A stretch of 64,000 nucleotides of DNA. It comes from Candidatus Bruticola sp. GTDB taxonomy: Bacteria > Vulcanimicrobiota > Xenobia > Xenobiales > Xenobiaceae. The DNA is taken from contig JBJEGD010000004.1 in assembly GCA_051874735.1 (NCBI GenBank), positions 110,071 to 174,070 of the forward strand. The letters run 5' to 3'. The notes beneath the pieces are model-generated. The model ran no database searches. It was not told the DNA's origin and was given only the letters and a program-made list of their open reading frames with translations. Positions 6,659 through 21,669 of this stretch are shown piece by piece. The first letter of the stretch is position 1, and every line of letters starts with the position of its first letter. The position numbers were made by a program, and so were the translations under genes.

Positions 6659-7309
6659 ATGGAAGACAATTATTTACAGCTGGTTCTAATAGGAGAAAGC
6701 GAGAATTTTATATCCTGGGGTCTGCTTTTATCTAGAAAAGGATTTACTTTAAGCGGTGTTTATTTGCCGCAGCGCTGGGCCGCTTTGGCCAGTGTGCTAC
6801 TATTAGGATGCCCAGCTTATACAAATATAGAAGAGACTGCCGCTTCCGGAAACATCATTTTTATTGAGAGAAGTTTTTGGGCCCAATTGTCTGAAGAAAA
6901 TAAAAGTAAAATGTTAAATTTAGATGAAAGTAACTGCGCCCCCAATGAAACCTGCCCAATTAATAAATCGGTGGTGCTGATCGATTTCCTCGGGGAAGGG
7001 CCGACATTTAGCTCAAAAGAAGCAGCAACTAAAGCTTTTGAGGCCCCTAACGATTTACAGGCTTTTGTTGATAAAACTGCTTCCAGTTGGCAGTGGTATC
7101 TGCTTAAGATAGCTGGCTCCCTCTCTGAAGCTGGACGCGATATCTTGCGAGTAGATGAAATGTGCTGTGGACGAGCTCATGAACCTAATCCTTGTCAAGA
7201 TTATTCCCTAGATTGCTCTGGACTTAGTTTTCTTTTAAAAAGTTTAAAAGCGGAAGAAAACGAGAGCTGTGGAGTTAAGAACATTTTAGAAAAATTGCTA
7301 GATTGCTGA
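6659..7309 (+). CDS. Hypothetical protein; N-terminus resembles a degenerate Rossmann-like domain
   Basis: 216 aa ORF with AGGAG RBS; LQLVLIG...LLSRKGFTLSGVY resembles a beta-alpha-beta unit but lacks GxGxxG. Confidence 0.5.
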   Translation: MEDNYLQLVLIGESENFISWGLLLSRKGFTLSGVYLPQRWAALASVLLLGCPAYTNIEETAASGNIIFIERSFWAQLSEENKSKMLNLDESNCAPNETCPINKSVVLIDFLGEGPTFSSKEAATKAFEAPNDLQAFVDKTASSWQWYLLKIAGSLSEAGRDILRVDEMCCGRAHEPNPCQDYSLDCSGLSFLLKSLKAEENESCGVKNILEKLLDC

Positions 7310-7434: not shown

Positions 7435-8157
7435 GTGGGTGAGCGTTTTTCCGTCGCTGTAGTTACCGATTGGCAGGGGACGGCCGGTCCTGCTATCTGC
7501 AATGCTTTAATTCAAGCCGGCTTCAGCGTTTTAATTAATGGGCCCCAGGAGGTACTCTTTAATATCCCTCCTTCCGATGCTATGGGCAAAGTTTTAGCTC
7601 AGCCTTTCGATACGACTAATGAACAGGAAGTACAAGAAACTTTTTTGACCTGTGCTAATCACTTGGGAGGCATTGACGTCTTAGTTAACAATAACTACTT
7701 CTGGAATGATGCTGCTTTGGGTGATATTACCGAAAAAATGTGGGAAGAAGTCATCAATCGCGGTTTAAAAAGTACTTTTTATTGCAGTAGAGCAGCTAGC
7801 CGTTTTATGAAGACTCAGGGCTACGGTAAGATTATCAATGTCATTAGTTCTTCGGCATTTAACGGTGTTTACACTCAATTCGCTTCAGTGTGTGCCGGTA
7901 TCCATTCCTTAACAAAATCGTTGGCCAAAGAATTGGCTCCAGAAGTTAGGGTAAATTCTGTAGCTCCAGGCTTGATCGACGAGCCTTGGATTGATGAAGG
8001 TGGTAAGGAGCTCAGGGAAATGCTGGTGCGCGATGTTTTGTTAAAGCGTCTTTGTTCCAACGATGATATTGCTGAAGCTGTAAATTATTTAGCTTGTGGC
8101 GCCGATTTTATGACTGGCCAAATGCTGGTGTTAGACGGCGGTGAATGTTTGCATTGA
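7435..8157 (+). CDS. SDR-family (FabG-like) protein lacking catalytic residues
   Basis: GGIDVLVNN, GKIINVISS, LTKSLAKELAPEVRVNSVAPG and FMTGQMLVLDGG define the fold; YxxxK is replaced by FASVC. Confidence 0.85.
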   Translation: MGERFSVAVVTDWQGTAGPAICNALIQAGFSVLINGPQEVLFNIPPSDAMGKVLAQPFDTTNEQEVQETFLTCANHLGGIDVLVNNNYFWNDAALGDITEKMWEEVINRGLKSTFYCSRAASRFMKTQGYGKIINVISSSAFNGVYTQFASVCAGIHSLTKSLAKELAPEVRVNSVAPGLIDEPWIDEGGKELREMLVRDVLLKRLCSNDDIAEAVNYLACGADFMTGQMLVLDGGECLH

Positions 8158-8253: not shown

Positions 8254-10698
8254 ATGGATTATTTTATGAAAAGCAAGTCTGTTGAGACGCTTATTATACG
8301 CTGCATATTACCGTTGTTAATATTTATTTTAAGCAGTTGTTTATCAGCCTATGCTCAAGACCAGGACTGGTTTGCCTCTGGTGACAGCGATTCTGTTTCT
8401 TTTTACGATAAGGAGGCGCCTTATATAAGCCTAGGCTTAGGTCCAAATAATTTGGGCAAAAAGTCTTCTTCAAATATAACGCGGATCGATTCTTTAGAAG
8501 GCACAGTAGTCGACTTTGATAATAAAGAGCGGGAGATTCTTTATAGAACTGATAACAACAATTATTTAAGTGGCTCTTATTTTATTTCTTTACAAAAGCA
8601 TTGGCTGAGCAGTGTCAATTTAACAGCAAAGCGGTTAGTAGCTCAGAAGGCTGTCAAAAACGATGAAGCCAAGGTAATTTTAGTTAGAGATAAGTTCGCT
8701 GTCCTGCGCCAAGAAAATTCTTTTTCTGTTTTCCGCCAGGATAATTTACAGCTTTTATGGGAGCGAGACTTCTCATCTGAATTCGGTTTAATCGCTAGTA
8801 ATATAGGTGTATGGCCGGAACAAATGGTCTTAATTGGCCAAGCTGAAGGTCAAAAATCTTTTATTTGTGCCTCAGTAAACTTGGCTGACGGTCAGATCCG
8901 CTGGAAAAAAACATTATCGGGTCTCTTCGCAGATTTAGCGGTTTCATCTCAGTTTGTTTACTTGGCCTTTACTGAAGAGAATGGCTACAATTCTAGTCAG
9001 GTTCACGGAGCTAAAGGTACTATTTGTTCACTGTCGCTTAGTAACGGTAGGATGAGCTCCAGTAGACAAATAATAGGGCTATATCGTTTTTATGCAGGTC
9101 CAAATAGGCTTCTGACTATTTCCTGCAGTGATTACGGAGCAAAAACTGCCTATGTTATGGAACTTTATTCTACCGATTTGCAGCTCTTAAATAGCATTGG
9201 CATAAGTTTTCTGCCTCAATGGGTAAATTTTAGTTCTAAGCAAATTAGGGCTCTTTACTCCGATTTAGATTCTTTGGAACGCTGGAATTTATGCGTACTT
9301 TCAGCTGAAGATGGAAAAGTACTCTCCCATTTTGAAATAAGCAATAAGTTATATCAGCTGGTATGCGATAGAGATAATGTTTGGTTTTTTATAGGTATTG
9401 ATAATGCTGTCGCTGTATACTTGTTGCAAGATAACGAGCTAATCTCAGTGACAGAATGCTCATTTGACATGGAAGACAGCCCTTATTTAGGGTGTAGTGC
9501 TCTGATTTTAGGTAATAATCTTTATGCTTGGGGTAAAAGAGCTAACTCTGCTGTTTTATCTATTGCGGCTTTAGATCTTAAGAGCAGGCGCCGTTTAGGC
9601 TGGAGTAGTAAAAATTTAGACTCGGCTTCTCTTATCCCTTGTGGTAATTCTCTGGCTATGGTGTCTGTAGATAACGATCGTTTTACCGGCGAAGTTGTCA
9701 GCCGTATTAAACTTATCGATTTCAAAAAGGGTGGATTTTCGTTTACATCTGAGCCGATTAAAGGTCAAATCGTATCTTTCGGAGGAGATAGGGCTTTGTC
9801 TGCTGCTAGGTCGGTTCTGCGCAAGCGGCACCTTGAGGTTCACGATGACGCTTTAATATATCTGGCTTCTTCTGGGGGAGAGCTGACACTTCTGAGCCAA
9901 AACGGTAAAATTTTGACACGTCCTTTGAGGAGCATATTTTTTGATTGGACAAAGCTAAATAATTTTTGCGGAGTTATTCTTTTAACTGGGTGTATTCTAT
10001 GGTATATAGCCCAGGCTAATCGGGGAAAGAAGCTCTTTATACGTGAAATAGCTGGTTTGAGTGCTCTAGATGAAGCCGTCGGCAGGGCTACTGAAATGGG
10101 GCGTCCGGTGCTGTATATACCTGGAGTCGGGGAGATAGATGATACGCAGACTATGGCCGCTCTTTCAGTTTTAGGCAAGGTTAGCAGCTGCACCGCCGAG
10201 TATGGTTGCTCTATTATGGTGCCTAACTGCAGCCCTGTAGTAATGTCTATGGCTCAAGATGTCGTCAGTCAATCTTATTTAAAGGCCGGATGTCCCGATT
10301 CTTACGTTAGTGATAATATCTGCTATTTATCCGGTGAACAGTTTGGATTCGCTGCGGGGGTGTGCGGTATTATGGTGAGGGAGAGACCAGCGGCTGTCCT
10401 CTACATGGGCACGTTTTTAGCTGAGGCCTTAATGCTGGCGGAAACTGGTAATTCTACAGGAGCCATACAAATTGCTGGTACAGCTAGCGCTTCTCAACTA
10501 CCTTTCTTTGTGGCCGCTTGTGATTACACACTTATTGGTGAGGAACTTTATGCCGCCTCCGCTTATCTTTCCAATGATCCTATGCAGATAGGCTCATTAA
10601 AGGGGCAGGATGCTGCTAAAGCGGCTATTATGGTGCTTATTATCGCAGGTATAATTTGCCTCAGCTGCGGAGGCCATTGGATCTCCTATCTTTGGTAG
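8254..10698 (+). CDS. Membrane protein: signal peptide, beta-propeller-like exported region, TM helix and C-terminal DUF6754 domain
   Basis: Signal ending AYA-Q; PQQ/BamB-like blade segments (QLLWERDF, NLADGQIRWKK, SAEDGKVL); C-terminal IREIAGLSALDEAVGRATEMGRPV...LIGEELYAASAYLS...GQD recognised as DUF6754 from memory. Confidence 0.75.
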   Translation: MDYFMKSKSVETLIIRCILPLLIFILSSCLSAYAQDQDWFASGDSDSVSFYDKEAPYISLGLGPNNLGKKSSSNITRIDSLEGTVVDFDNKEREILYRTDNNNYLSGSYFISLQKHWLSSVNLTAKRLVAQKAVKNDEAKVILVRDKFAVLRQENSFSVFRQDNLQLLWERDFSSEFGLIASNIGVWPEQMVLIGQAEGQKSFICASVNLADGQIRWKKTLSGLFADLAVSSQFVYLAFTEENGYNSSQVHGAKGTICSLSLSNGRMSSSRQIIGLYRFYAGPNRLLTISCSDYGAKTAYVMELYSTDLQLLNSIGISFLPQWVNFSSKQIRALYSDLDSLERWNLCVLSAEDGKVLSHFEISNKLYQLVCDRDNVWFFIGIDNAVAVYLLQDNELISVTECSFDMEDSPYLGCSALILGNNLYAWGKRANSAVLSIAALDLKSRRRLGWSSKNLDSASLIPCGNSLAMVSVDNDRFTGEVVSRIKLIDFKKGGFSFTSEPIKGQIVSFGGDRALSAARSVLRKRHLEVHDDALIYLASSGGELTLLSQNGKILTRPLRSIFFDWTKLNNFCGVILLTGCILWYIAQANRGKKLFIREIAGLSALDEAVGRATEMGRPVLYIPGVGEIDDTQTMAALSVLGKVSSCTAEYGCSIMVPNCSPVVMSMAQDVVSQSYLKAGCPDSYVSDNICYLSGEQFGFAAGVCGIMVRERPAAVLYMGTFLAEALMLAETGNSTGAIQIAGTASASQLPFFVAACDYTLIGEELYAASAYLSNDPMQIGSLKGQDAAKAAIMVLIIAGIICLSCGGHWISYLW

Positions 10699-10720
10699 CT
10701 TGTTTTAAAGGATTATATAT

Positions 10721-11383
10721 ATGAAGCGTGAGATTCCGCTGCTGATTACTTTCATTGCCGGCTTGGTAATGATAGTGCAGTTTTACAGTTACCCTCTGAA
10801 TTGGCTGGGCGACCTGTTTAATGATTTTTATAATATTATCCTTACCTTTGCCTTTATATTAGGGGCTTTGAGTCTTTTTGCCGTTAATGGTAAAAAAATT
10901 ATGTCGCAGACTCCTGGCTGGGGATACAACTGTGTATTGCTGCTGTCTTTAATAGTAACATTAATTTGTGGCCTTTTTCTGGCTCCGCATGGCAAGTTAC
11001 CTACCGACGAGGGGACAGCCTTCAGCTGGATTTTTGATCATATATTTACCCCTCTGTCGGCAGCTACTTACAGTTTGTTGGCCTTTTATATCGCTTCAGC
11101 TTCTTTCAGAGCTTTTCGGGCCAGATCTTGGGAAGCAGCTTTGCTGCTAGTTACTGCGTTCATCGTCATGCTTTTCCGCGTTCCTTTAGGTGAACATCTG
11201 TGGCAGATGTTACCTATAGTAGGTCAATATGATATAGCTAAATTTATTGAAGATTGGTTAATGGGCACTTTCAATGCCGCTGGTCAGCGGGCTATTCTCT
11301 TAGGAGCCTCAGTCGGATTGATTTCTGTATCTTTAAAAATATTGCTAGGTATTGAGCGATCTTATTTAGGAGGCTCCGATTAA
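10721..11383 (+). CDS. Conserved integral membrane protein (about 5-6 TM) of the DUF6754/GlmL cluster
   Basis: 220 aa, mostly hydrophobic; SLLAFYIASASFRAFRAR and RAILLGASVG...LLGIERSYLG; stop overlaps next start (TAATG). Confidence 0.75.
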   Translation: MKREIPLLITFIAGLVMIVQFYSYPLNWLGDLFNDFYNIILTFAFILGALSLFAVNGKKIMSQTPGWGYNCVLLLSLIVTLICGLFLAPHGKLPTDEGTAFSWIFDHIFTPLSAATYSLLAFYIASASFRAFRARSWEAALLLVTAFIVMLFRVPLGEHLWQMLPIVGQYDIAKFIEDWLMGTFNAAGQRAILLGASVGLISVSLKILLGIERSYLGGSD

Positions 11384-12216
11384 TGTTAGCTAAGTTGTCA
11401 AATTTGGATAGGCGCTGGATTTTTTTTGCTCTAGCCTTATGTGTGATTATTCCTCTTGTTTGGCCGCTTCAGCTGCGGATAGAGCCTAGTCCGCTCAGCA
11501 TCAAATTTTATGAAACTGTAGAAAATTTGCCAGAAAATTCCTGCGTTTGCATGTCGTTCGATTATGGACCAGGCACTAAGGTAGAGTGTCATCCTATGGC
11601 TGTAGCCATGTTGCGCCACCTTTTCCGCCGCAAATGCAAAGTCGTATGCATAGCCTTGTGGCCTGAAGGCAGTCTTTTTGCTAGAGAAGCATTGCAAGAA
11701 GCAGCCAAAGAATATGAAGCCGTATATGGTGAAGATTATGTCAACTTAGGCTACAAAAATGGAGGAGAGGTTATACTTAAGGCTATAGGGGAAGATTTTG
11801 GCTCAATATATACGTCAGATTTTTCTGGTCGTCGTTTGTCTGATTTGCCTATTATGAATAGAGTCGTTGGATGGGATAGTTTTGATTTAGTCTGCGATTG
11901 GTCTATGGGGCGTCCTGGTCTAGCTGAATTCGTTCGTGTGGTTGTTGGCCAATATAATCGTCCTTTATTGGCTGGTACTACAGCCGTAACTACTCCTGAG
12001 GCTTATCCTTTTTTGAATTCTGGACAATTAATTGGTCTATTAGGTGGTTTGCGCGGAGCCAGCGAGTATGAAGTGCTGATAGGCATGAAGGGCGGTCAAG
12101 CTTCGCGGGGTATCGATGCTCAATCTATGGCCCATTTTTTTGTGGCTTTTCTGATCGTTTTAGCCAATTTAATATACTTTGCCCAATGCTGGCATAAAAA
12201 AAATACTAGAAACTAG
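11383..12216 (+). CDS. Membrane protein (TM - alpha/beta domain - TM), distant DUF6754 paralog
   Basis: 277 aa; N- and C-terminal TM; FDYGP, YGEDYVNLGY, GLLGGLRGASEYE, DAQS; translationally coupled to the upstream gene. Confidence 0.72.
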   Translation: MLAKLSNLDRRWIFFALALCVIIPLVWPLQLRIEPSPLSIKFYETVENLPENSCVCMSFDYGPGTKVECHPMAVAMLRHLFRRKCKVVCIALWPEGSLFAREALQEAAKEYEAVYGEDYVNLGYKNGGEVILKAIGEDFGSIYTSDFSGRRLSDLPIMNRVVGWDSFDLVCDWSMGRPGLAEFVRVVVGQYNRPLLAGTTAVTTPEAYPFLNSGQLIGLLGGLRGASEYEVLIGMKGGQASRGIDAQSMAHFFVAFLIVLANLIYFAQCWHKKNTRN

Positions 12217-12240
12217 CTGTAGAGAGGCTGCGGATCTATT

Positions 12241-12888
12241 ATGGAAGCTCATTCATTAAGTGACCTTATAGGAATGTGGATAGGTGTTTGCCTGACTATG
12301 TGCATTTTCAGCTTTCTCTATAAGGATAATCCTCTGTACAGATTAGCTGAGCATATTTTTGTTGGAGTCTCTGCCGGCTATTGGATGTGCATTGGGTACT
12401 GGCAGGTGATTTACCCTAACTTGATTTTGAAACTGCAGAGTGGCGATTGGCGCTATTTAATAGCAGCCGTACTCAGTATTATGCTTTTAGCTAGAGTCGT
12501 GCCCAAGTATGCTTGGATTAGCCGTTGGCCTTTAGCCTTTATGGTCGGTATTTTCGCTGGCTATAACATAGTCTATACCATGGAAGCCCAGGTTATTCGA
12601 CAGCTTGAGGCTACGGTTGTGCCACTTTGGGGATGCCCAGATTTCGCGACTTTTTTATCAAATTTGATTATTGCAGTTGGGGTCTTAAGCGGCCTGATGT
12701 ATTTCTATTTTTCTAAAGAACATAAGGGAACTTTTTGGGGTAAAACTGCTAAAATAGGCATAGGAGTGCTGATGATCTCCTTTGGAGCTGCCTTCGGGTA
12801 CACCGTTATGGCCAGAATTTCTTTGCTGATAGGGCGGGTTATGTACATTCAGGATGTATGGCAGGCTACTGTTAACTTCTTCCGTTAG
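12241..12888 (+). CDS. Conserved integral membrane protein (about 5-6 TM) of the DUF6754/GlmL cluster
   Basis: 215 aa; SFLYKDNPLYRLAEHIFVGVSAGY, YFYFSKEH, ISFGAAFGYTVMARISLLIGR. Confidence 0.75.
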   Translation: MEAHSLSDLIGMWIGVCLTMCIFSFLYKDNPLYRLAEHIFVGVSAGYWMCIGYWQVIYPNLILKLQSGDWRYLIAAVLSIMLLARVVPKYAWISRWPLAFMVGIFAGYNIVYTMEAQVIRQLEATVVPLWGCPDFATFLSNLIIAVGVLSGLMYFYFSKEHKGTFWGKTAKIGIGVLMISFGAAFGYTVMARISLLIGRVMYIQDVWQATVNFFR

Positions 12889-13001
12889 ATTTGTCTATTT
12901 TGGGCTACAGTTGAGCTCGAAAATATTTTTAAATCTTGAATTATAGCTTTTTGTGGTTCTATTTGAAACATATTAGTTAGGGGGTAAGAATTTAAGTAAG
13001 T

Positions 13002-14147
13002 ATGCTGAATATGGAAAACCATCGATACCGCAGTTCGTTTCACGCTAATACTGGACCCGATCATGAAGAAGTTGCAGATAGCTATACTCATGAAGTTGAA
13101 AGTAGCGAGCCACATCAAGAGGGGGCCTCTGTACCCTTAAGTTTTGTAAATAATTCCCCCAGAAATCAGATACTTTCCGTAATATTTAAGTTTTGTTCCC
13201 GTATTTACAAGAAAATTTTAAGATCACTTCCTGGTAATATCGATGGTCAACTGCCGGGTAGATTTAAACTGCTCTATTCACTGTCATTTTTTATATTGTT
13301 TTTGGGATTTATTGCCTATCCTTTGGTGTTCCCATATATAGATGATGATGTAAGTTTGTATTGTACATTAGGCAGTTCTATGTCTTTTTTTATTAGTTTT
13401 ATTATTCTAATTTCGCCTAGTTATGATCCTCCTGAAGAGTATATCGAAGATGATTATGAAACGGCCATAGAATCTTCTTTTTCTGAAGAAGAGTCTGAAC
13501 CACTTACAATTGAATATTCTTATTCGCATTTCCAATATCTAATTTATACTTTGATAGCTGCTGCTATGGCTGCTATTGGCTACTACCTTATGATTTGTAT
13601 TTATATATACATGCAAAAATATTATTTAAACGATGCTTTAAATGTGAGTACGTCAATACACGTCATTGTGGCTATATTTATAGTGGTTGCCTCGTTTCTA
13701 ACTTTTGGCAATTATTACCAAGAAACAGCTGTGATAACTTTGACAAATGAGGGTATAAAAGGAAAAATTAAGGGGCTTTTCTCTCTCAAAGATATAAAGG
13801 AAAGTTTTTACGCATCATTAGGACTCGGGAGTGTTCATGTCGATAGAGATGAGCTTCCCTCCGATTTGTTAGAAATGATCCCTTCTCTCCCCGTTCAAGA
13901 TGAACTGGACTGGGAGTATTTTAAAGCTTTTTCCGTTCATCATGAGTGCATTGTATTGTGGTCCAAGCCTCCAGAAGAAAATTTTATGAGCCTGTTGTAC
14001 ATCACCGTAGGAGCAAGCCTTGAGCTAAATCCTTCAATGCGCTTATTTATTCCGCAAAATGATCTTCAAAAAGTAACTAACTTTTTGTCCCATAAGCTAA
14101 AACAAGTGAAGTTCTATCCCAACGCCAGTCTTATTTACAGAATGTAA
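13002..14147 (+). CDS. Hypothetical membrane protein (about 4 TM) with C-terminal YcxB/bPH-like domain
   Basis: 381 aa, AT-rich; two TM hairpins separated by an acidic linker; ITLTNEGI...LDWEYFKAFS...IVLW...LFIP. Confidence 0.6.
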   Translation: MLNMENHRYRSSFHANTGPDHEEVADSYTHEVESSEPHQEGASVPLSFVNNSPRNQILSVIFKFCSRIYKKILRSLPGNIDGQLPGRFKLLYSLSFFILFLGFIAYPLVFPYIDDDVSLYCTLGSSMSFFISFIILISPSYDPPEEYIEDDYETAIESSFSEEESEPLTIEYSYSHFQYLIYTLIAAAMAAIGYYLMICIYIYMQKYYLNDALNVSTSIHVIVAIFIVVASFLTFGNYYQETAVITLTNEGIKGKIKGLFSLKDIKESFYASLGLGSVHVDRDELPSDLLEMIPSLPVQDELDWEYFKAFSVHHECIVLWSKPPEENFMSLLYITVGASLELNPSMRLFIPQNDLQKVTNFLSHKLKQVKFYPNASLIYRM

Positions 14148-14245
14148 ACATTTGTAAGTCTTTTTTGTCGCGAATATCAAACTTCAGTAGTTTATAATGG
14201 GATAAAGCTAGTGTAGCTTTAGAACGAACAAAGGGAATATGGGCA

Positions 14246-14914
14246 ATGGTAGATTATTTGCACATAATTAGAAACACAAATTTTACACAACATGTAAATT
14301 ATTTAACTTCTCCAGATTATCTAGTTATAGATCATAAAGTCTTCCGGGGACGCGGTTTGGCGAAATTGTGGTATATGTTAAAACCGTTGGTAGCGATAAT
14401 TATATTTGTGGCTTTATTTACATATGTAATGAACTTTAATGTTGGAGAATTTGAGCTTACTATTGCTTTCATTGTCCTTGCTTTGGCCTTATTTATAATA
14501 TTTGGGGGCTCTGATGATGGCGATTTTGATGTGAATTTAATATTCAGTGAGACTGGGCTGACTATGTTAGTTAATTCCCAAAATGGGCGGACTAATATGA
14601 TTAAACATTACCCCACTTTCGCAAGTGTATCTGGTGAAATGGCTTGGTCTCAGTTTAAAAGCTATTCTATAGTGCATCACGAGAAGCGAGGAACTGTTTC
14701 TATTAGGCTATGGCTGATTGATGAGCCTGATAGCTGCTCTTACGATGAACTTAAGCTTAAAGAGCGACGTAATGTTGCTGTTGAATTCTTCCTTAATCCC
14801 ATAGATAATCGCTATATCAAACTGGGAGATTGTAAAATTACAGAACTTAAAGCTGGCGTCAAATTTCTGCAGGAACATTTGCCTTTGTATTCTGAATTTA
14901 AAGTCAGCGATTAG
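14246..14914 (+). CDS. Hypothetical membrane protein (2 TM) with YcxB/bPH-like domain
   Basis: 222 aa; TM hairpin then LIFSETGL...MAWSQFKSYS...IRLW; AAGGGA upstream. Confidence 0.6.
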   Translation: MVDYLHIIRNTNFTQHVNYLTSPDYLVIDHKVFRGRGLAKLWYMLKPLVAIIIFVALFTYVMNFNVGEFELTIAFIVLALALFIIFGGSDDGDFDVNLIFSETGLTMLVNSQNGRTNMIKHYPTFASVSGEMAWSQFKSYSIVHHEKRGTVSIRLWLIDEPDSCSYDELKLKERRNVAVEFFLNPIDNRYIKLGDCKITELKAGVKFLQEHLPLYSEFKVSD

Positions 14915-15044
14915 CTTCCGCCTCATATTAACAAAGGCTGGAATAGCTTTTTTTCATAAGAAAATAGGTGGATGCTGCAGCGGTTGAGCCTATATCATTT
15001 TTCTATATGGCAACTGTCTGAAAGTTTGTGTATAGGGTATAAGT

Positions 15045-15545
15045 TTGAGTAAAAAACATTATAAAAACAAGCAGAGCAATTCTAAAAATAAAGAAATTGC
15101 TTTGCCTTTAATTATTAGGCAGCATCCTGCCGTTAAGCGCCCTTGGTTGACTGCAGTTATTGTTCTTTTTTTGTTATTGATGATCTTCTCTATGTTCAGT
15201 TCTAAAGGAGGCTGGAGTAGTCTGCTAGTTCCGGCAGTTTTACTAGTGGTTATACTGCATGGCCTTATTCCTTATTTCGTTCCCACTACTTACACTTTTA
15301 CTAAAGAACAGATCGAAGTGCGCCGTTTTGGTAAGCCTTCTGTGTTTAAGTGGGATGATTACCGCGCCTATTCTATGCAGAGCAATGGTTTTGTGCTTTG
15401 GATGGAAATGCATCCTGCCTCCAAAAGTTCTTCATTTTCCAAATATTTTAAAAGTTTGCGAAACTCTGTTTTTATTCCCCTCGATGAGGAATCTATGCAA
15501 ATAGTTGAACCTCTGATTTCTCGCAAGTTAGTCAAGACCGATTAA
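15045..15545 (+). CDS. Membrane protein (2 TM) with YcxB/bPH-like domain
   Basis: 166 aa; TM hairpin then PYFVPTTYTFTKEQIEVR...FKWDDYRAYS...FVLW...VFIP. Confidence 0.68.
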   Translation: MSKKHYKNKQSNSKNKEIALPLIIRQHPAVKRPWLTAVIVLFLLLMIFSMFSSKGGWSSLLVPAVLLVVILHGLIPYFVPTTYTFTKEQIEVRRFGKPSVFKWDDYRAYSMQSNGFVLWMEMHPASKSSSFSKYFKSLRNSVFIPLDEESMQIVEPLISRKLVKTD

Positions 15546-15557
15546 TTAATAAGTGAT

Positions 15558-15875
15558 ATGAATATAAATTGGCGGGAAATGTGGTCCCTACAAGAACCTG
15601 TGTCTTCTGAAACTGAGCAGGCTAAAGTGGAAAATGATGTAAATCGATTAGCTCAGTTGGTAGTTTCCAGCCATTTAGGAGTTCCGGCTCTTTGGTTTTT
15701 GGAATCGTGCCGTCCGCTCCATTTTATAGGCAGTCAAGCTTTGTTTTTTCTTTCACCGGCTGCCAATATGTTCGGCTGGGGTGATTTATGTCGCCAGATG
15801 GCTAAAATTGCGGAGCAGCCTTCTCAAATGGAAGCTTTGATGGAAGCTATCGAGCAATTGGAAATTCAAAAATAA
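15558..15875 (+). CDS. Small conserved hypothetical helical protein
   Basis: 105 aa; VPALWFLESCRPLHFIGSQALFFLSP core; stop overlaps the ATPase start (TAATG). Confidence 0.7.
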   Translation: MNINWREMWSLQEPVSSETEQAKVENDVNRLAQLVVSSHLGVPALWFLESCRPLHFIGSQALFFLSPAANMFGWGDLCRQMAKIAEQPSQMEALMEAIEQLEIQK

Positions 15876-17677
15876 TGAACAGCACGATAAATAAAGATTC
15901 AATCGTTTCAATATTGGCTACAGATTGTGGCAGTACTACTACCAAAGCTATTCTCATAGAAAAGGGGCCTGAAGGTTTTCGCTTAAGAGCCAGAGGCGAG
16001 GCGCCTACCACTGTAGAAGCACCAGCTGAAGACGTCACTCAAGGTGTGCGCAATGCTGTTATGGAGCTTTCAGAAATTACTGGTCGCCCTCTTATCGATG
16101 ATAAAGGTGAGCTGATTAAGCCTTACGATGGCAAGCAAGGAATAGATATTTATCTCTCCACTTCGTCTGCGGGTGGTGGTTTGCAAATGATGGTAGCTGG
16201 AGTTGTGGCCAAAATGAGTACGGAGAGTGCTCAAAGGGCCGCTCTAGGTGCTGGAGCTGTCGTGATGGAAACCCTCTCTTGTAATGATTCGCGCCGTCCT
16301 TATGAAAAAATAGAAATTATTCGAAAACTTCGGCCGGATATGGTACTTCTTTCTGGCGGAGTTGATGGCGGGGTTCAGAAACATGTAGTGGAAATGGCTC
16401 AAATATTTGGAGCTGCCGATCCGCGGCCTCGTTTAGGGGTAAATTATAAATTACCAGTTATTTTTGCCGGCAATCGGGACGTCCGCGAACAAGTAAAAAA
16501 AATATTAGGACATAAAACTGCTCTGGAAATAGTTGATAACATTCGGCCTACTATGGAACGGGAAAACTTACAGCCCGCCCGTTTGAAAATTCAAAGTCAA
16601 TTTTTAGAACATGTTATGGCGCATGCTCCAGGTTATCCCAAACTGATGGCTATGACTGACGAGCCCATTATGCCTACTCCGGCAGCAGTTGGCATGATTA
16701 TGCAAAAAATTGCCTCAACTCGATCGATAAATATACTTGGCGTTGATATCGGTGGAGCTACAACTGACGTTTTTTCTGTTTTTGACGGCAATTTCAATCG
16801 CACAGTCTCGGCCAATTACGGTATGAGCTACTCGATATCTAATGTTGTGGCCGAAGCTGGTTTAAATAATGTTTTGCGTTGGGTACCCTTTGCAGTTGAA
16901 GAAGCTAAGCTGCGCAACAGTATAAAAAATAAAATGATTCGTCCTACTTCTATTCCTTTTCTTATAGAAGATTTGGAAATAGAACAGGCTATTTGTCGAG
17001 AAGCTTTGCGCTTATCCTTTGAGCAGCACGCTCTCTTAGCTGATGGATTAAAGGGAGTTCAGCACCAAGCTGAGATAGGCTCTATCTTTAATCAGGGGGA
17101 AAAGAAAAGTTTAATTGATCCGATGCGTTTAGATATGCTTATAGGTTCAGGTGGCGTACTTTCTCATGCTCCGGAACGTTGGCAGACCGCTTGGATGTTA
17201 ATAGATTCGTATCTTCCCTGCGGTGTGACTCAACTGGCTGTAGATTCCATATTTATGATGCCGCAATTAGGTGTGCTTTCGGCTATTATGCCTGAAGCTG
17301 CCGCCTATGTTTTTGAAAAAGATTGTCTGATAGAGTTAGGCACTTGCATTGCTCCGCGTTTTACCAATGGACGGGCAGTAGCTGAGGGACAGGAAATTCT
17401 CAAAGTTGAATTTAGCCATGGTGAAACTTTAGTATTGCACATGGGTGAGATTATTGTGCGTAAGTTGCCCGTTGGAGAGAGCTTGCAGGCACGTTTAGTT
17501 CCTATAGGACGGACTGATATTGGAGCTGGAGCCGGTCGAGAAGCAGAATTTACTTTGAAGGGCGGTACTACTGGTCTTATTTTTGACGGTCGAGGGAGGG
17601 CTCCGTTTGTGCTGCCTGCAGAACGTTCAGAGCTTGTCAAAAAACTTCAGGAATGGAAGGCGGCTTTTAAAAAATAA
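15875..17677 (+). CDS. GlmL/MutL (glutamate mutase L)-family ASKHA-fold ATPase
   Basis: Phosphate-1 ATDCGSTTTKA, TSSAGGGLQM, LSGGVDGG, phosphate-2 VDIGGATTDVFS, adenosine motif IGSGGVLSHAP, C-terminal GLIFDGRGR. Confidence 0.85.
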   Translation: MNSTINKDSIVSILATDCGSTTTKAILIEKGPEGFRLRARGEAPTTVEAPAEDVTQGVRNAVMELSEITGRPLIDDKGELIKPYDGKQGIDIYLSTSSAGGGLQMMVAGVVAKMSTESAQRAALGAGAVVMETLSCNDSRRPYEKIEIIRKLRPDMVLLSGGVDGGVQKHVVEMAQIFGAADPRPRLGVNYKLPVIFAGNRDVREQVKKILGHKTALEIVDNIRPTMERENLQPARLKIQSQFLEHVMAHAPGYPKLMAMTDEPIMPTPAAVGMIMQKIASTRSINILGVDIGGATTDVFSVFDGNFNRTVSANYGMSYSISNVVAEAGLNNVLRWVPFAVEEAKLRNSIKNKMIRPTSIPFLIEDLEIEQAICREALRLSFEQHALLADGLKGVQHQAEIGSIFNQGEKKSLIDPMRLDMLIGSGGVLSHAPERWQTAWMLIDSYLPCGVTQLAVDSIFMMPQLGVLSAIMPEAAAYVFEKDCLIELGTCIAPRFTNGRAVAEGQEILKVEFSHGETLVLHMGEIIVRKLPVGESLQARLVPIGRTDIGAGAGREAEFTLKGGTTGLIFDGRGRAPFVLPAERSELVKKLQEWKAAFKK

Positions 17678-17679
17678 AT

Positions 17680-18819
17680 ATGAGCAGTGCTTATGTCCCC
17701 GGTCTAAAAGTTACCGATCAAATTGAATTAAAAATAGAGCGTCGTTTACCCCTGAAAGGGAATGTAATTGTCAAAAAAGGGGATAGAGTCCGCTGGAATA
17801 CTGTGGTGGCCAATACTTTCTTACCTGGAAGTGTAGAAATAGTTAATGTAGCTGCTAAGTTAGGAGTTGCTCCAGGTGAAGTTAGCCGGATTATGCTCAA
17901 ACAGGAGGGTGATACCGTATTAAAAGGTGATATTTTAGCTAGCAGCAAAGGATTTTTGGGTTTTTTTAAGTCTAATATTTTAGCGCCAATTAATGGTACT
18001 GTAGAGTCTGTGTCTGATGTGAGTGGTTTAGTAGTACTGCGGGCTGCTTCAGTACCGGTAGAAATAAAAGCCTATGTTGACGGAATTATAGAAGAAATTC
18101 TTCCTGAAGAGGGAGTGATTATCAAAACTGTTGCCTCTTATGTACAGGGGATTTTCGGCATAGGCGGAGAGACGGCAGGGGAACTATTTACCTTTACAGA
18201 CTCAGCTCAGGAAGAAATGAAAATTGAAAAATTGAGCTTTGAGCATAAGGGTAAAATTTTAGTAGGTGGTTCTTTAGTAACTGCCGAGTTTTTGCGCCGT
18301 GCTGTGGATATAGGAGTCCGGGCTGTAATAGTTGGCGGAATTTCTGATGCTGATTTAGCCGATTTCTTGGGCTTTGATTTAGGAGTAGCTATTACCGGAT
18401 CTGAAAATAAAGGTATTACTTTAATTATTACTGAGGGATTCGGTACTATAGCTATGGCGGAGCGTACTTTTGCTTTGCTTAAGCGTTATGCTGGCCGATG
18501 GGCTTCTGTTTCCGGAGCTACACAGATCAGAGCTGGAGTTATACGTCCGGAAATAATTGTCGCCAAAAACGAGGACGAGCAGGTGCAATTTCAGGAAAAA
18601 GCATCAGTCGCTCCTTGTATATCCGGACTGAGAGTCGGTTCTAGGGTTCGTTTAATTCGCGATCCTGATTTCGGTAAGCTAGCTAAAGTTACAGAGCTTC
18701 CGCACGAAGCTCAGCTTATACCTACTGGAGCTAAAGTTCGTGTAGCCAAAGTTGAGTTAGATGACGGCCGCTGTTTGTCTTTGCCTAGAGCTAATTTAGA
18801 AATTATAGAGGACCACTAA
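17680..18819 (+). CDS. Conserved hypothetical protein with barrel-sandwich-hybrid repeats, central alpha/beta domain and KOW/SH3-like C-terminus
   Basis: VIVKKGDRV; EGDTVLKGDILA...ILAPINGTV; QGIFGIGGE; LIITEGFG; GATQIRAGVIRPE; LRVGSRVRLIRDPDFGKLAKV; starts 2 nt after the ATPase stop. Confidence 0.75.
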   Translation: MSSAYVPGLKVTDQIELKIERRLPLKGNVIVKKGDRVRWNTVVANTFLPGSVEIVNVAAKLGVAPGEVSRIMLKQEGDTVLKGDILASSKGFLGFFKSNILAPINGTVESVSDVSGLVVLRAASVPVEIKAYVDGIIEEILPEEGVIIKTVASYVQGIFGIGGETAGELFTFTDSAQEEMKIEKLSFEHKGKILVGGSLVTAEFLRRAVDIGVRAVIVGGISDADLADFLGFDLGVAITGSENKGITLIITEGFGTIAMAERTFALLKRYAGRWASVSGATQIRAGVIRPEIIVAKNEDEQVQFQEKASVAPCISGLRVGSRVRLIRDPDFGKLAKVTELPHEAQLIPTGAKVRVAKVELDDGRCLSLPRANLEIIEDH

Positions 18820-18903
18820 AAAGTATTCTTTTTTTATTGCATCGGCAGGTATAAAGCTTATTTTGTAGGTAAGTGAAAGCAATATCAGTTGAGGTTTTTG
18901 CTT

Positions 18904-20802
18904 GTGAAAATTAACGATAATATAGGTGAAGCTAACGAAATCAGCTCTGTAAAAGAACAAGTTGGAAGCGAATTTCCGATAAATCAGGCAATATTGGAGT
19001 GGGCAAAAACTACCAATACCAATGTAAAAACTTTGCCCGAGCTTATCCGGCGTACTGTAGATACTTACGGCAACAGTCCCTATCTGGGAGTTAGAGTCGG
19101 CAGTGAGTATATTTTTAAAACCTACAATGAAATTTACCAGGAGATAGTTTTTTTTGCTTCAGCTCTGTTAGGTATTGGCTGCCAGCCTGGAGATATGGTC
19201 GCTAATTTCTCTTCTAACTGTGTAGAATGGGCTGTAGTGGACTTCGGTTCGTCCCATGTAAAATGTATTCACGTACCCATGTACGCTACTTTGAGTCAAA
19301 GCGAGTTTGCCTATATTGTTAAAGATTGTGGAGCGAAAGTACTTTTTGTTCTAACTCAGGAGCAATTCAGCAAAGCTTTAGCTGTTGAAAGCGAACTTCC
19401 TGATTTGAAGCATATTGTAGTATCTTCGTCTGTCAGTTTAGAAGGTATTCACAGTAGTAAGCAACTTTGGACTTGGTCTGAGTTTTTAAGTTATGGTCGG
19501 GTTCATCTTAACAGTTACCAGGCTTGCATAGAAGACAGGGTCAGTTCCATAAAGACTACCGATGTAACTAGTATTATTTATACTTCAGGTACTACTGGCA
19601 ATCCCAAAGGGGTCATGCTTATGCATGGCAATTTCTGTAGCCAGGTTGATTCTTTAGATAAAATTATCGATATTACGCATGAAGATGTTCACTTATCATT
19701 TTTGCCTCTATCTCATGTGTTTGAGCGCATATTTTTTTATCTAAACAGCTATAAAGGGGCTTCTTTAGGCTTCGCTCAAAATTTAATTACTGTATTGCAG
19801 GACATGCAGGTTTTGCGTCCCACAACTTTTACTAGTGTGCCGGCTCTCTACATAAAAATTCACGATCGCGCTATTTCTCGCATGACCGGTTTTAAGAGCA
19901 AACCTTTCAAATGGGCTATGAAGGTGGGACGATCTTACAATGCTAATAAGCGCTTAGGCAAAGTTGATAAAGCTGGTCGTATCATTCACGCTATTACTCG
20001 TAGAATGCTATTTAGCGATTTATTTAAAAAATTCGGCGGTCGCATCCGTTTGTTCGTTTCTGGCGGTGCTCCTCTGCCTGCCAATGTTTGTGAGTTTTTC
20101 CTCGATTTAGGCTTTACTATGCGTGAGGGGTATGGCTTAACTGAAACTAGTCCAGTTATTTGTATAAACAGGGCTACTGATATTTGTCCAGGATCGGTAG
20201 GCGAACCAGTCTTCTACAGCCAGGTTAAGATTGCCGAAGATGGTGAAATCCTCACTAAAGGTCCTAATGTCATGCGCGGTTATTTTAAGAATTTGGAGGA
20301 TACTCAAGAAGTTATAGACAGTGAAGGCTGGTTCCATACTGGTGATGTCGGTTATATGGAGGATAACAAAGTATTTATTACCGATCGCAAGAAAAATCTT
20401 TTAGTTTTGTCTAATGGGAAGAACGTAGCTCCTAGCCAGATTGAAGCGGCTATTTTGAAGAGCGAATGGATTACTTCTGCCGTTTTGGTTGGTAATAACC
20501 GCAGCTGCGTAGGCGCTATTATCGTACCTAATTTTGAAAAACTGCGATCCTTCTGCGAAAAGAAAAATATAACTGCAGAAACTAATCGTGAAATGGTCAA
20601 TCATGCTGCAGTACAAGAAATTATCTGCAGTGAAATCAACGAAGCCTGCGATTCTTTCTCGTCTTATGAGAAAGTTAAGCGTTTTTATATTTCAGATCGC
20701 GATTTCTCTTTTGCTATGGGAGAACTGACGCCTACTCAAAAAGTGAAGCGCCGCGAAGTTGAAAAGAATTTCAGCGCTGAGATAGATAAAATGTTTGGCT
20801 AA
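18904..20802 (+). CDS. fadD: Long-chain fatty acid--CoA ligase (AMP-dependent synthetase)
   Basis: IIYTSGTTGNPKGVML, FLPLSHVFER, EGYGLTET, WFHTGDVG, ITDRKK, GKNVAP, ELTPTQKVKR; GTG 18904 follows GAGGT (ORF track start 18889). Confidence 0.9.
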   Translation: MKINDNIGEANEISSVKEQVGSEFPINQAILEWAKTTNTNVKTLPELIRRTVDTYGNSPYLGVRVGSEYIFKTYNEIYQEIVFFASALLGIGCQPGDMVANFSSNCVEWAVVDFGSSHVKCIHVPMYATLSQSEFAYIVKDCGAKVLFVLTQEQFSKALAVESELPDLKHIVVSSSVSLEGIHSSKQLWTWSEFLSYGRVHLNSYQACIEDRVSSIKTTDVTSIIYTSGTTGNPKGVMLMHGNFCSQVDSLDKIIDITHEDVHLSFLPLSHVFERIFFYLNSYKGASLGFAQNLITVLQDMQVLRPTTFTSVPALYIKIHDRAISRMTGFKSKPFKWAMKVGRSYNANKRLGKVDKAGRIIHAITRRMLFSDLFKKFGGRIRLFVSGGAPLPANVCEFFLDLGFTMREGYGLTETSPVICINRATDICPGSVGEPVFYSQVKIAEDGEILTKGPNVMRGYFKNLEDTQEVIDSEGWFHTGDVGYMEDNKVFITDRKKNLLVLSNGKNVAPSQIEAAILKSEWITSAVLVGNNRSCVGAIIVPNFEKLRSFCEKKNITAETNREMVNHAAVQEIICSEINEACDSFSSYEKVKRFYISDRDFSFAMGELTPTQKVKRREVEKNFSAEIDKMFG

Positions 20803-20817: not shown

Positions 20818-21669
20818 TTAGCTTTTAATAGCTCCAGAGGTAATGCCTTTTATAAAGTGCTTTTGAATAGCCAGAAAAAATATTATCATAGGCAAAGCGG
20901 CCAAAAATGATCCTGCAGCCACGACCCGGAAATCGCTGTCAAAACTTGAGGACAGATAAGCTAGGCCTACGCTGATAGGGTAAAATTTTTCCGATTTTAA
21001 AATTACTAGTGGCCATAAGAAAGAGTTCCAGTTAGCTGTGAAGGCAAAGAGGGCTGCTGTCGAAAGCACCGGCATATTTAAAGGAAGACAAACGTGATAA
21101 AAAATAGCCCATTCGCCGCATCCATCCAGTCTGGCAGCATCTTCTAATTCTCGGGGAATGTTGAGAAATGCTTGACGGCATAGCAATACCGTAAAAACAC
21201 TGACGGCGCCGGGAAGAATGACTCCTAGAACAGTATCGTAAAGTCCTAAGGCTCTTATGGTAGTAAAATTTATAATGGTGTTAGCCTGACTAGGCAAAGC
21301 TAAGACGGCTGCCAATACTAACATGACAGCCTCTTTGCCTTTAAAAGTTAAACGGGCCAGGGGATAGGCTGCTAAAGCTGCTATACTTACTTCTAGTAGC
21401 ACCCCTAAAATACAATACAGAACGGTGTTGATAAAAAAACGAAGCAAAGGCAGCTGGTTATTAGCTGCAAACAGGCGCTCATAATATGCAGAGGTCCATC
21501 GCGTTGGCCAAAGCAAATGCAGTCCTGTTCCATAAACTCCATCAGCTTTCCAAGAAGTTATGAATAACCACCAAAATGGCATGATGGATATTGTACAGAC
21601 TACAAAGACAAGGAGCCATCGGGGAGCTGAACTCCATATTTTTTTTATATTTGTGCGCTTATTTATCAA
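20818..21669 (-). CDS. Carbohydrate ABC transporter permease (MalG-like)
   Basis: AAYPLAR, EAA loop IPRELEDAARLDG, WNSFLWP, QKHFIKGITSGAIK. Confidence 0.92.
   Translation of the reverse strand: MINKRTNIKKIWSSAPRWLLVFVVCTISIMPFWWLFITSWKADGVYGTGLHLLWPTRWTSAYYERLFAANNQLPLLRFFINTVLYCILGVLLEVSIAALAAYPLARLTFKGKEAVMLVLAAVLALPSQANTIINFTTIRALGLYDTVLGVILPGAVSVFTVLLCRQAFLNIPRELEDAARLDGCGEWAIFYHVCLPLNMPVLSTAALFAFTANWNSFLWPLVILKSEKFYPISVGLAYLSSSFDSDFRVVAAGSFLAALPMIIFFLAIQKHFIKGITSGAIKS

Follow-up and report, generated by a model that had tools for sequence, protein, structure and literature searches.

A DUF6754 membrane cassette and a long GlmL/MutL-type ATPase in Candidatus Bruticola: parts of a widespread eight-protein system and probably of an ATP-coupled membrane machine

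Glutamate mutase and ornithine aminomutase are assisted by the accessory proteins GlmL/MutL and Or-4. Like these, corrinoid activases and diol/glycerol dehydratase reactivases are ATPases of the ASKHA (actin/Hsp70/sugar-kinase) fold. Other actin-fold proteins, FtsA and PilM, polymerize or serve as nucleotide-dependent platforms, and the membrane complexes Rnf and Na+-NQR have a barrel-sandwich domain in a peripheral subunit on the cytoplasmic side. Here we analyzed a 64,000-nucleotide stretch of Candidatus Bruticola sp. (GenBank assembly GCA_051874735.1, contig JBJEGD010000004.1, positions 110,071 to 174,070; the window hereafter), in which the genes at 8254-18819 encode several membrane proteins, a long relative of GlmL and a 379-residue partner protein with a barrel-sandwich domain. 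We conclude that this region is probably a lineage-expanded copy of a widespread eight-protein system that sits at the cytoplasmic membrane and works as an ATP-coupled membrane machine.

The ATPase of the region shares its Pfam family (PF13941), the ASKHA fold and intact nucleotide motifs with GlmL/MutL and Or-4, but differs from them in length (600 versus ~460 residues), in its scores against the family cut-offs, in its tree position and in its neighbors, which are membrane proteins rather than mutase subunits. The first gene, g1, encodes a member of Pfam DUF6754 (PF20539), a catalogue entry with no function assigned, to which the protein of the window adds a predicted exported N-terminal domain of ~530 residues. 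In working principle the module may be compared with FtsEX/MacB and the energy-coupling factor (ECF) systems, where cytoplasmic ATP hydrolysis is coupled to outward domains, a pattern that would fit both the extracellular peptidase-like fusions described below and the sharing of one motor by several membrane units. The module has no ATP-binding cassette (ABC) ATPase, FtsX or ECF protein, and the likeness is one of analogy, not homology. A full-text literature search, with subscription journals outside its coverage, returned no published description of the system among the papers listed, and no paper under the name DUF6754. This agrees with a preliminary description of this DNA, made from the sequence alone, which knew of no functional characterization.

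All ten open reading frames of the region, whose coordinates we re-derived, are co-oriented on the plus strand (Table 1). They comprise a membrane cassette of four genes (g1 to g4), four smaller genes (g5 to g8), the ATPase gene and the partner gene. As described previously, stop/start overlaps of 1 nt (TAATG) join g2 to g3 at 11383 and g8 to the ATPase gene at 15875, and core junctions have gaps of 2-24 nt, namely 22 (g1/g2), 24 (g3/g4), 12 (g7/g8) and 2 nt (ATPase/partner). The gaps flanking the extra genes g5 and g6 measure 113, 98 and 130 nt. Judged from the loci and from neighborhoods mapped with hidden Markov models (HMMs), the conserved module is a set of eight genes, comprising the four-gene cassette, g7, g8, the ATPase gene and the partner gene. 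The expectation that the genes of the cluster are conserved together was thus borne out for these eight but not for g5 and g6, which are lineage-specific paralogues of g7. Close relatives, represented by metagenome-assembled genomes from gut and rumen, keep the whole array including the flanking short-chain dehydrogenase/reductase (SDR) and acyl-CoA ligase genes.

The four proteins of the cassette are inherited as a unit. Among 20 loci around DUF6754 genes in the window's phylum, the order DUF6754-g2-g3-g4 was found in 18; of the exceptions, one is cut by a contig end (L059), and in the other the DUF6754 gene was the only one detected by tblastn (L062). The ATPase gene was present in 7 of the 20. 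When metagenomes were scanned with the DUF6754 alignment, 605 relatives were confirmed among 625 stretches, and 75 loci were kept and searched with HMMs built from our own alignments. Downstream DNA of at least 2.6 kb was available for 64 DUF6754 genes, and in all 64 cases g2, g3 and g4 came next, in this order. Of the 21 metagenome loci with full flanks, 9 had the ATPase and partner genes at most 10 kb from the cassette. An eight-gene array in the order g7-g8-ATPase-partner-DUF6754-g2-g3-g4 occurs in L077, L086, L090, L142, L143 and L147, and the order cassette-g7-g8-ATPase-partner in L124. Cassettes outnumber ATPases in the metagenome loci, with up to three tandem cassettes beside one ATPase gene (L080, L106 and L134), whose g3 copies are 27-39% identical.

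The ATPase and its partner co-occur with the cassette genome by genome. In 101 sampled genomes of the window's phylum, DUF6754 scored above the cut-off in 47 and PF13941 in 48 (one borderline); by strong matches, 45 genomes had both, 2 had PF13941 alone, 2 had DUF6754 alone and 52 had neither. The PF13941-only genomes are G076 (85% complete, with only the short type, of 503 residues) and G080 (72% complete), and those with DUF6754 only are G078 (75% complete) and G021 (67% complete). In 81 sampled genomes of a second phylum, that of an Armatimonadia record (L016), 72 had both, 1 had the ATPase only, none had DUF6754 only and 8 had neither. Because the two genes in this phylum usually lie on separate contigs, or on the same contig at a distance of 1.45 Mb, the co-occurrence is independent of adjacency. 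Fourteen model genomes used as controls gave no DUF6754 match and no PF13941 match above the cut-off, which is why the module has remained unstudied. Identity between phyla amounts to 59-67% for the ATPase, 46-56% for the partner and 44-65% for DUF6754, a degree of conservation like that of core machinery.

Natural fusions connect the ATPase with the membrane. Among 53 longer ATPase relatives, three proteins of ~1333 residues (P0242-P0244, one of them in a record named Bacillota) consist of a signal peptide, an M1-type peptidase domain, one transmembrane (TM) helix and the long ATPase; the M1-type domain is predicted to be extracellular and carries HEXXH with a Glu at +18. A fourth protein (P0241) is built in this way too, with a TSP3-repeat region. 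In these fusions the ATPase would lie at the inner membrane face and be linked to events outside the cell. In proteins of ~1054 residues, some of them from records named Cloacimonetes, a zinc ribbon, the ATPase and the partner form one chain, and a fused relative matches NQRA_N.

Only three of the ten proteins (g1, the ATPase and the partner) matched Pfam or NCBIfam families above threshold, the other seven having no match. The match of g1 to DUF6754 covers residues 562-810 of 814 (E = 4.6e-112; 373.8 bits against a cut-off of 27) and profile positions 5-253 of 257, indicating a full-length member. Hydrophobic segments at residues 12-30 (signal or anchor), 568-586 and 787-805 suggest an N-terminal signal/anchor, a variable exported domain of ~530 residues and then a TM helix, a domain of ~200 residues and a second TM helix. 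This and the other topologies given here were deduced from hydropathy and Lys/Arg (K/R) counts. In this arrangement the ~200-residue domain, which holds many invariant polar residues between its two TM helices, would be cytoplasmic. Bare orthologues begin with signal-peptide-like segments, and the N-terminal domains fused to DUF6754 (FN3, by a source's name, and the large domain of g1) must be exported. Within the genus the N-terminal part of g1 is 48-73% identical, while the DUF6754 part reaches 55-65% across phyla. The preliminary description had called g1 a fusion of a propeller and DUF6754. The DUF6754 part stands, and the propeller is hinted at by sub-threshold PQQ_2/BamB matches (PQQ_2 16.1 bits against a cut-off of 27.6; Atlas score 0.89). 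The first half of the DUF6754 domain was modeled as alpha/beta, and a fold search with VIA-align returned nothing above Z 6.2. No cofactor-binding family matched DUF6754, and in relaxed scans against Pfam no second family recurred among 72 members of the g3 family and 58 of the DUF6754 family.

Hydropathy also supported the membrane character claimed for the other membrane proteins. Averaged over its alignment, g2 has six predicted TM helices with both termini inside (K+R 10.6 in even loops versus 4.6 in odd loops); no Pfam, NCBIfam or PDB sequence match was found for it, and Atlas returned unnamed clusters only. For g3, two short cytoplasmic tails (K+R 3.3 and 4.4) and a domain of ~220 residues on the outer face are predicted, and g4 has five to six predicted TM helices. 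The cytoplasmic N-terminal tails of g2 and g3 are invariant. g3 is the most variable cassette protein, tandem paralogues being 27-45% identical, the lowest of the four; its family comprises 1663 clusters (50% identity) at E<=1e-30. It is fused to g4 in at least three representative clusters (P0391, P0420 and P0443; 579-598 residues). In two g3 relatives (P0394 and P0325), the outer domain is interrupted midway by inserts of 320-555 residues; one insert consists of HEAT/PBS-lyase-type repeats and the other includes CARDB. HEAT repeats are atypical of an exported domain, and the g3 topology is accordingly to be read as a prediction. PDB sequence profile searches with DUF6754, g2, g3 and g4 returned 0, 0, 4 and 1 matches, all at E>=0.64 and none to Rnf/Nqr chains. 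A duplicated-pair relationship of DUF6754/g2 with g3/g4 found no support at the sequence level (hhalign probabilities 0.9% and 0.2%).

The conserved small proteins g7 and g8 are candidate linkers between the two halves, because in split modules they are found with one half or the other: four loci (L054, L060, L074 and L136) have them together with the cassette and two (L069 and L070) together with the ATPase gene. The two genes adjoin each other in loci of the window's phylum and in metagenome loci. g7 has a basic N-terminal tail, a TM hairpin and a domain of ~87 residues; because both ends are K/R-rich (7.9 and 15.6), they are predicted to be cytoplasmic. g8 has a conserved core in an alignment of 16-21 orthologues and no TM segment. 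The region had been said to encode proteins that combine TM segments with PH-like domains. The TM segments are evident from hydropathy, and the PH-like part receives weak backing, in that 4 of 20 g7 family members match bPH_6 (best E = 6.8e-4), 4 of 20 YcxB and 4 of 20 DUF6585; the window's own g7 matches only DUF6585, with 21.2 bits against a cut-off of 27.7. The extra proteins g5 and g6 share the architecture of g7 and its C-terminal motif W-x-x-[FY]-[KR]-x-[FY]-S, although overall sequence similarity is weak and g5 has no Pfam match. Compared with their counterparts in L004, they are 42% and 51% identical, respectively, whereas the ATPases are 95% identical. Paralogues of the g7 type form tandem arrays of three to seven genes in sister species. 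By architecture and motif, g5 and g6 are lineage-specific g7 paralogues outside the conserved set.

The ATPase had been described as an intact member of the ASKHA fold, and this proved correct. PF13941 matches residues 13-484 of 600 (E = 3.9e-121), Hydantoinase_A matches as well (E = 1.2e-05), and an alignment of 32 orthologues shows no variation in the phosphate-1, phosphate-2 and adenosine motifs, a mean column identity of 66% and dense invariant residues. A conserved C-terminal extension of ~115 residues brings the protein to its full length. No PDB sequence relative was found at E<=0.01, and hence no filament-forming relative there. The protein falls below all three NCBIfam cut-offs, scoring 224.7 versus 475 bits with NF040745, 205.6 versus 600 with NF040744 and 160.6 versus 204.05 with TIGR01319. 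It is 29-32% identical to short, mutase-linked paralogues versus 59-67% to the long orthologues of other phyla. In a maximum-likelihood tree, in which just three short sequences were included and stand on long branches, these three were split from 40 long or fused proteins by a branch of 4.25 changes per column with support 100/99.

The preliminary description had found no glmS/glmE or oraS/oraE in the window, and Pfam likewise detected no B12 mutase among the window's proteins. The genome (2.47 Mb in 42 contigs, 92.4% complete) contains one PF13941 gene above the cut-off and one DUF6754 gene; Met_asp_mut_E and MM_CoA_mutase were not found in it, nor was Lys-AminoMut_A, in a search whose control was also silent. 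Mutase neighbors were seen at short paralogues in sister genomes. In G003, of the same genus, a short copy of 463 residues lies between a racemase gene and an ornithine aminomutase pair (OAM_alpha; Lys-AminoMut_A + OAM_dimer + B12-binding), and in G070, of the same family, a copy of 466 residues is directly followed by Met_asp_mut_E (712 bits). The short PF13941 paralogues thus accompany B12 mutases, in contrast to the long form. This agrees with the earlier view of an orphan GlmL-type ATPase; the protein is no B12-mutase helper, and at the least the annotation 'glutamate mutase L' should be dropped for the long form. Nine B12-binding-domain matches occur in the genome, all on other contigs (G000 contigs C17, C10, C8, C32, C22, C34, C13 and C2; loci L017-L024), and therefore the organism uses B12 even though the mutases searched for were not found. 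The matches sit in open frames of ~490-590 residues, with one of 1235; our guess is that these genes probably encode B12-dependent radical SAM enzymes and methionine synthase.

The partner had been described as a barrel-sandwich-hybrid protein, which is correct but incomplete, as the protein was modeled with three domains (AlphaFold2, pLDDT 85.3). The barrel-sandwich hybrid (residues ~49-123) resembles the N-termini of NqrA (4u9o_A) and RnfC (8ahx_C), both at Z 7.8 in VIA-align, and backs the RnfC_N match (PF13375; 27.7 bits against a cut-off of 25.6). It is followed by a swivelling beta/beta/alpha domain (residues ~130-300), with Enzyme I (2wqd_A; Z 9.8, root-mean-square deviation 2.7, 105 aligned residues), RraA (Z 9.2), rifampin phosphotransferase (5hv1_A; Z 9.2) and the aconitase X small subunit (Z 8.8) as matches, and by a KOW/SH3-like domain (residues ~314-378; NusG KOW, Z 7.7). 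A PDB sequence profile search gave only RraA (E = 0.052) and NusG (E = 0.12). In Foldseek the partner weakly matched the glycerol dehydratase reactivase 1nbw_A (probability 0.72, E = 6.1e-3, 281 columns, TM-score 0.20). The protein family is large, 8000 of 8000 scored candidate clusters matching at E<=1e-5, and records from WOR-3, Armatimonadetes, Chloroflexi, Eremiobacterota, CPR3 and a Thermoplasmata archaeon, all labeled 'hypothetical', are 53-56% identical to it. DUF6754 is distributed just as widely. At L092:7333-8457 the partner gene lies upstream of the cassette, and no ATPase gene was detected before it in this 19-kb locus; the ATPase there may be diverged, displaced or broken.

Three known systems share a domain with the partner. 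The swivel fold is common to Enzyme I of the phosphotransferase system (PTS), to enzymes of the phosphoenolpyruvate (PEP) synthase type and to rifampin phosphotransferase, and the PTS may resemble the module further in that one cytoplasmic energy unit serves several membrane units. The PTS and PEP enzymes use a phosphohistidine, however, whereas the energy donor of the module would be an ASKHA ATPase rather than a PEP- or ATP-grasp enzyme, and the module has no EII-type protein. None of 36 partner sequences has an invariant or near-invariant His, and PF00391 did not match; because of the missing His, a PTS-like phosphohistidine relay is disfavored. The barrel-sandwich domain is shared with RnfC/NqrA, but the partner scores 18.5 bits with TIGR01945 (rnfC) against a cut-off of 245.95 and has no flavin or Fe-S domains. 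We rejected an Rnf/Nqr-like complex, as only this domain is in common and none of the ten proteins has an Rnf-Nqr Pfam match. The large subunit of the diol/glycerol dehydratase reactivase combines ASKHA and swivel domains as the ATPase and the partner do together; in the module, however, two separate chains carry these domains, no gene for a dehydratase or a B12 enzyme lies close by, and the structural match is the weak one given above.

On the reading we favor, an ATP-coupled membrane machine, g2 and g4 would form the membrane core, with the conserved ~200-residue domain of DUF6754 facing the cytoplasm and g3 and the fused N-terminal domain of g1 facing outward. The ATPase-partner pair would be tethered to the membrane by g7 and g8. 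Binding and hydrolysis of ATP would close the two ASKHA lobes, and the swivel domain of the partner would relay this movement to the cassette at its cytoplasmic face. The cassette would then perform work on the outer face, either transporting a substrate or switching an outward domain as FtsEX and MacB do. Of these two roles, we tentatively put forward that of a transporter, and that of a force transmitter appears rather unlikely, though credible. As many as three diverged cassettes can share a single ATPase, and specificity is therefore probably determined by the cassettes, g3 in particular. It is a speculative extension that the system constitutes a new class of ASKHA-powered machine, in which a shared ATPase-partner motor, tethered by g7 and g8, drives interchangeable cassettes, and g3 and the fused domains determine specificity for uptake, for export or for activating enzymes outside the cell, for example the fused M1-type peptidases. 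If the coupling is true, ATP-driven membrane work could be done in a new way, by a motor of the actin/Hsp70 fold, and a role would follow for thousands of genes labeled 'hypothetical' or mislabeled 'glutamate mutase L', some of them in gut bacteria.

Several observations weigh against a machine of this kind. To our knowledge, no transporter powered by an ASKHA protein has been described, and the prior is low. The many polar residues that are invariant in DUF6754, the ATPase and the partner would be expected of an enzyme no less than of a motor. The ATPase was not found within 10 kb of the cassette in 12 of the 21 full-flank loci, and the co-occurrence counts ignore kinship within each phylum and thus overstate independence. 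The structure model of DUF6754 is poor (pLDDT 58.5, and below 50 in the most conserved stretch). Clues to a substrate are also lacking: when neighbors were clustered over 71 loci, no gene beyond the eight recurred widely, and Rfam and riboswitch searches gave no match in window positions 1-30000 and only tRNAs in 14 loci.

The alternative that survives best, although we think it improbable, is a membrane-bound enzyme complex, in which the ASKHA protein would activate a small molecule or a lipid-linked substrate by chemistry of the phosphorylation or carboxylation type, the partner and the cytoplasmic DUF6754 domain would add active sites and the membrane proteins would anchor the complex or deliver the substrate. 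The Hydantoinase_A match of the ATPase is consistent with this, as are the dense invariant Gly, Asp, Glu, Thr and Cys residues of DUF6754, the partner and the ATPase and the resemblance of the swivel domain to Enzyme I, rifampin phosphotransferase, the aconitase X small subunit and RraA/HMG aldolase. However, no conserved His is present in that domain, metabolic genes do not recur next to the module, and one ATPase is shared by several diverged cassettes. The variable exported domains of DUF6754 and g3 and the peptidase fusions point instead to events on the outer face.

The cassette and the trio of ATPase, partner and g8 could also be two independent systems that happen to be neighbors, the cassette working alone or with other partners and the trio serving a different, soluble target. 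We consider this quite improbable, because presence and absence agree in 97 of 101 and 80 of 81 genomes, with all five mismatches in single genomes, several of them incomplete, and because g7 and g8 switch between the halves and some ATPases are membrane-anchored by fusion. What speaks for independence is the absence of the ATPase from the 10-kb flanks in 12 of the 21 full-flank loci, the frequent lack of linkage in the phylum of L016 and the excess of cassettes over ATPases.

Still less probable is a chaperone or reactivase, in which the ATPase-partner pair would open the Rossmann-like DUF6754 domain to load or exchange a tightly bound cofactor. The relationship of the ATPase family to GlmL, the Foldseek match of the partner to 1nbw_A and the alpha/beta character of the first half of the DUF6754 domain suggested this possibility. 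It is countered by the weakness of that match and the lack of a cofactor-binding family on DUF6754, by the absence of a cobalamin riboswitch in window positions 1-30000 or in the 14 loci, and by the location of the genome's B12-binding proteins exclusively on other contigs.

A membrane-anchored cytoskeletal or scaffold element, in which the actin-fold protein would polymerize or act as a nucleotide-dependent platform, is highly unlikely. The ASKHA fold, the invariant cytoplasmic tails of g2 and g3 and a possibly PH-like membrane-proximal domain in g7 would suit such an element, but the ATPase belongs to the GlmL/hydantoinase branch rather than the actin/FtsA branch, the PDB sequence search showed no filament-forming relative, and one constant, soluble swivel-domain partner better suits a motor or an enzyme. 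Finally, that the protein is a genuine GlmL, an accessory of a B12-dependent mutase encoded elsewhere in the genome, as the PF13941 match and the name 'glutamate mutase L' given to relatives by their sources might suggest, is largely refuted by its sub-cut-off NCBIfam scores, by the mutase searches of the genome (with the silent Lys-AminoMut_A control) and by the sister genomes, whose short paralogues adjoin oraS/oraE or glmE across the 100/99 branch.

Table 1. Genes and other features of the region at 8254-18819 (positions in the window)
Feature	Position	Strand	Remarks
g1 (DUF6754 gene), 814 aa	8254..10698	+	first gene of membrane cassette
g2, polytopic membrane protein	10721..11383	+	second cassette gene
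g3, bitopic membrane protein	11383..12216	+	third cassette gene; start overlaps g2 stop
g4, polytopic membrane protein	12241..12888	+	fourth cassette gene
Terminator-like hairpin, 9 pairs + T-rich tail	12898..12922	+	inside 113-nt gap after g4
g5, 381 aa, lineage-specific g7 paralogue	13002..14147	+	4 predicted TM helices + C-terminal motif domain
g6, 222 aa, lineage-specific g7 paralogue	14246..14914	+	predicted TM hairpin + C-terminal motif domain
g7, 166 aa, conserved candidate linker	15045..15545	+	TTG start; predicted TM hairpin + cytoplasmic domain
g8, 105 aa, small soluble protein	15558..15875	+	stop overlaps ATPase start
Long GlmL/MutL-type ASKHA ATPase, 600 aa	15875..17677	+	PF13941 match
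Partner protein, 379 aa	17680..18819	+	three-domain protein; RnfC_N match

The hairpin behind g4 could possibly serve as a partial stop between the cassette and the extra genes, and we note it as a lead only. Terminator-like sites were not in excess in the region (13 found versus 12.6 expected from shuffles), and a promoter/terminator scan performed no better than shuffles. PADLOC defense models gave no family for any of the ten proteins at E<=0.01, and Pfam and NCBIfam showed no ABC-type or other known transport ATPase or permease domain in them. An ABC permease gene lies outside the cluster, at 20818-21669 on the opposite strand.

Lineage-limited neighbors were an SDR gene (7 loci), a bifunctional nuclease (6), an ABC ATPase (6), ExbB/ExbD (5), an FtsX/MacB permease (3) and GcvT/GcvH (3). 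In the window, the SDR gene (7435-8157, plus strand) lies directly upstream of the cassette; it is 57-99% identical across its 7 loci, was not seen beside the cassette in other phyla, and may be a lineage-specific addition or a mere stable neighbor. Further upstream, a 216-residue open reading frame without a family match (6659-7309, plus strand) is 57% identical in L004, versus 99% for the neighboring SDR, and is thus fast-evolving. A bifunctional-nuclease gene (PF02577; 5864-6463, minus strand) is also located upstream, and in the 6 loci with this family near the cassette (e.g. L046:4974-5522) it adjoins a MacB-type FtsX permease and an ABC ATPase. Downstream, a FadD11-like AMP-binding acyl-CoA ligase gene (18889-20802, plus strand) starts 69 nt after the partner gene and is kept there in L004-L010 (78-87% identical), but not further. 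In the five ExbB/ExbD loci (e.g. L080:6498-7307, minus strand), a gene of ~260-270 residues without a Pfam match stands between the ATPase and partner genes, and the ExbB and ExbD genes come after the partner gene. A 1262-residue open frame upstream of the ATPase gene in the high-GC locus L065 is probably not coding. The glycine-cleavage T and H genes, present in 3 loci, lie just upstream of the eight-gene array at L077:384-1894.

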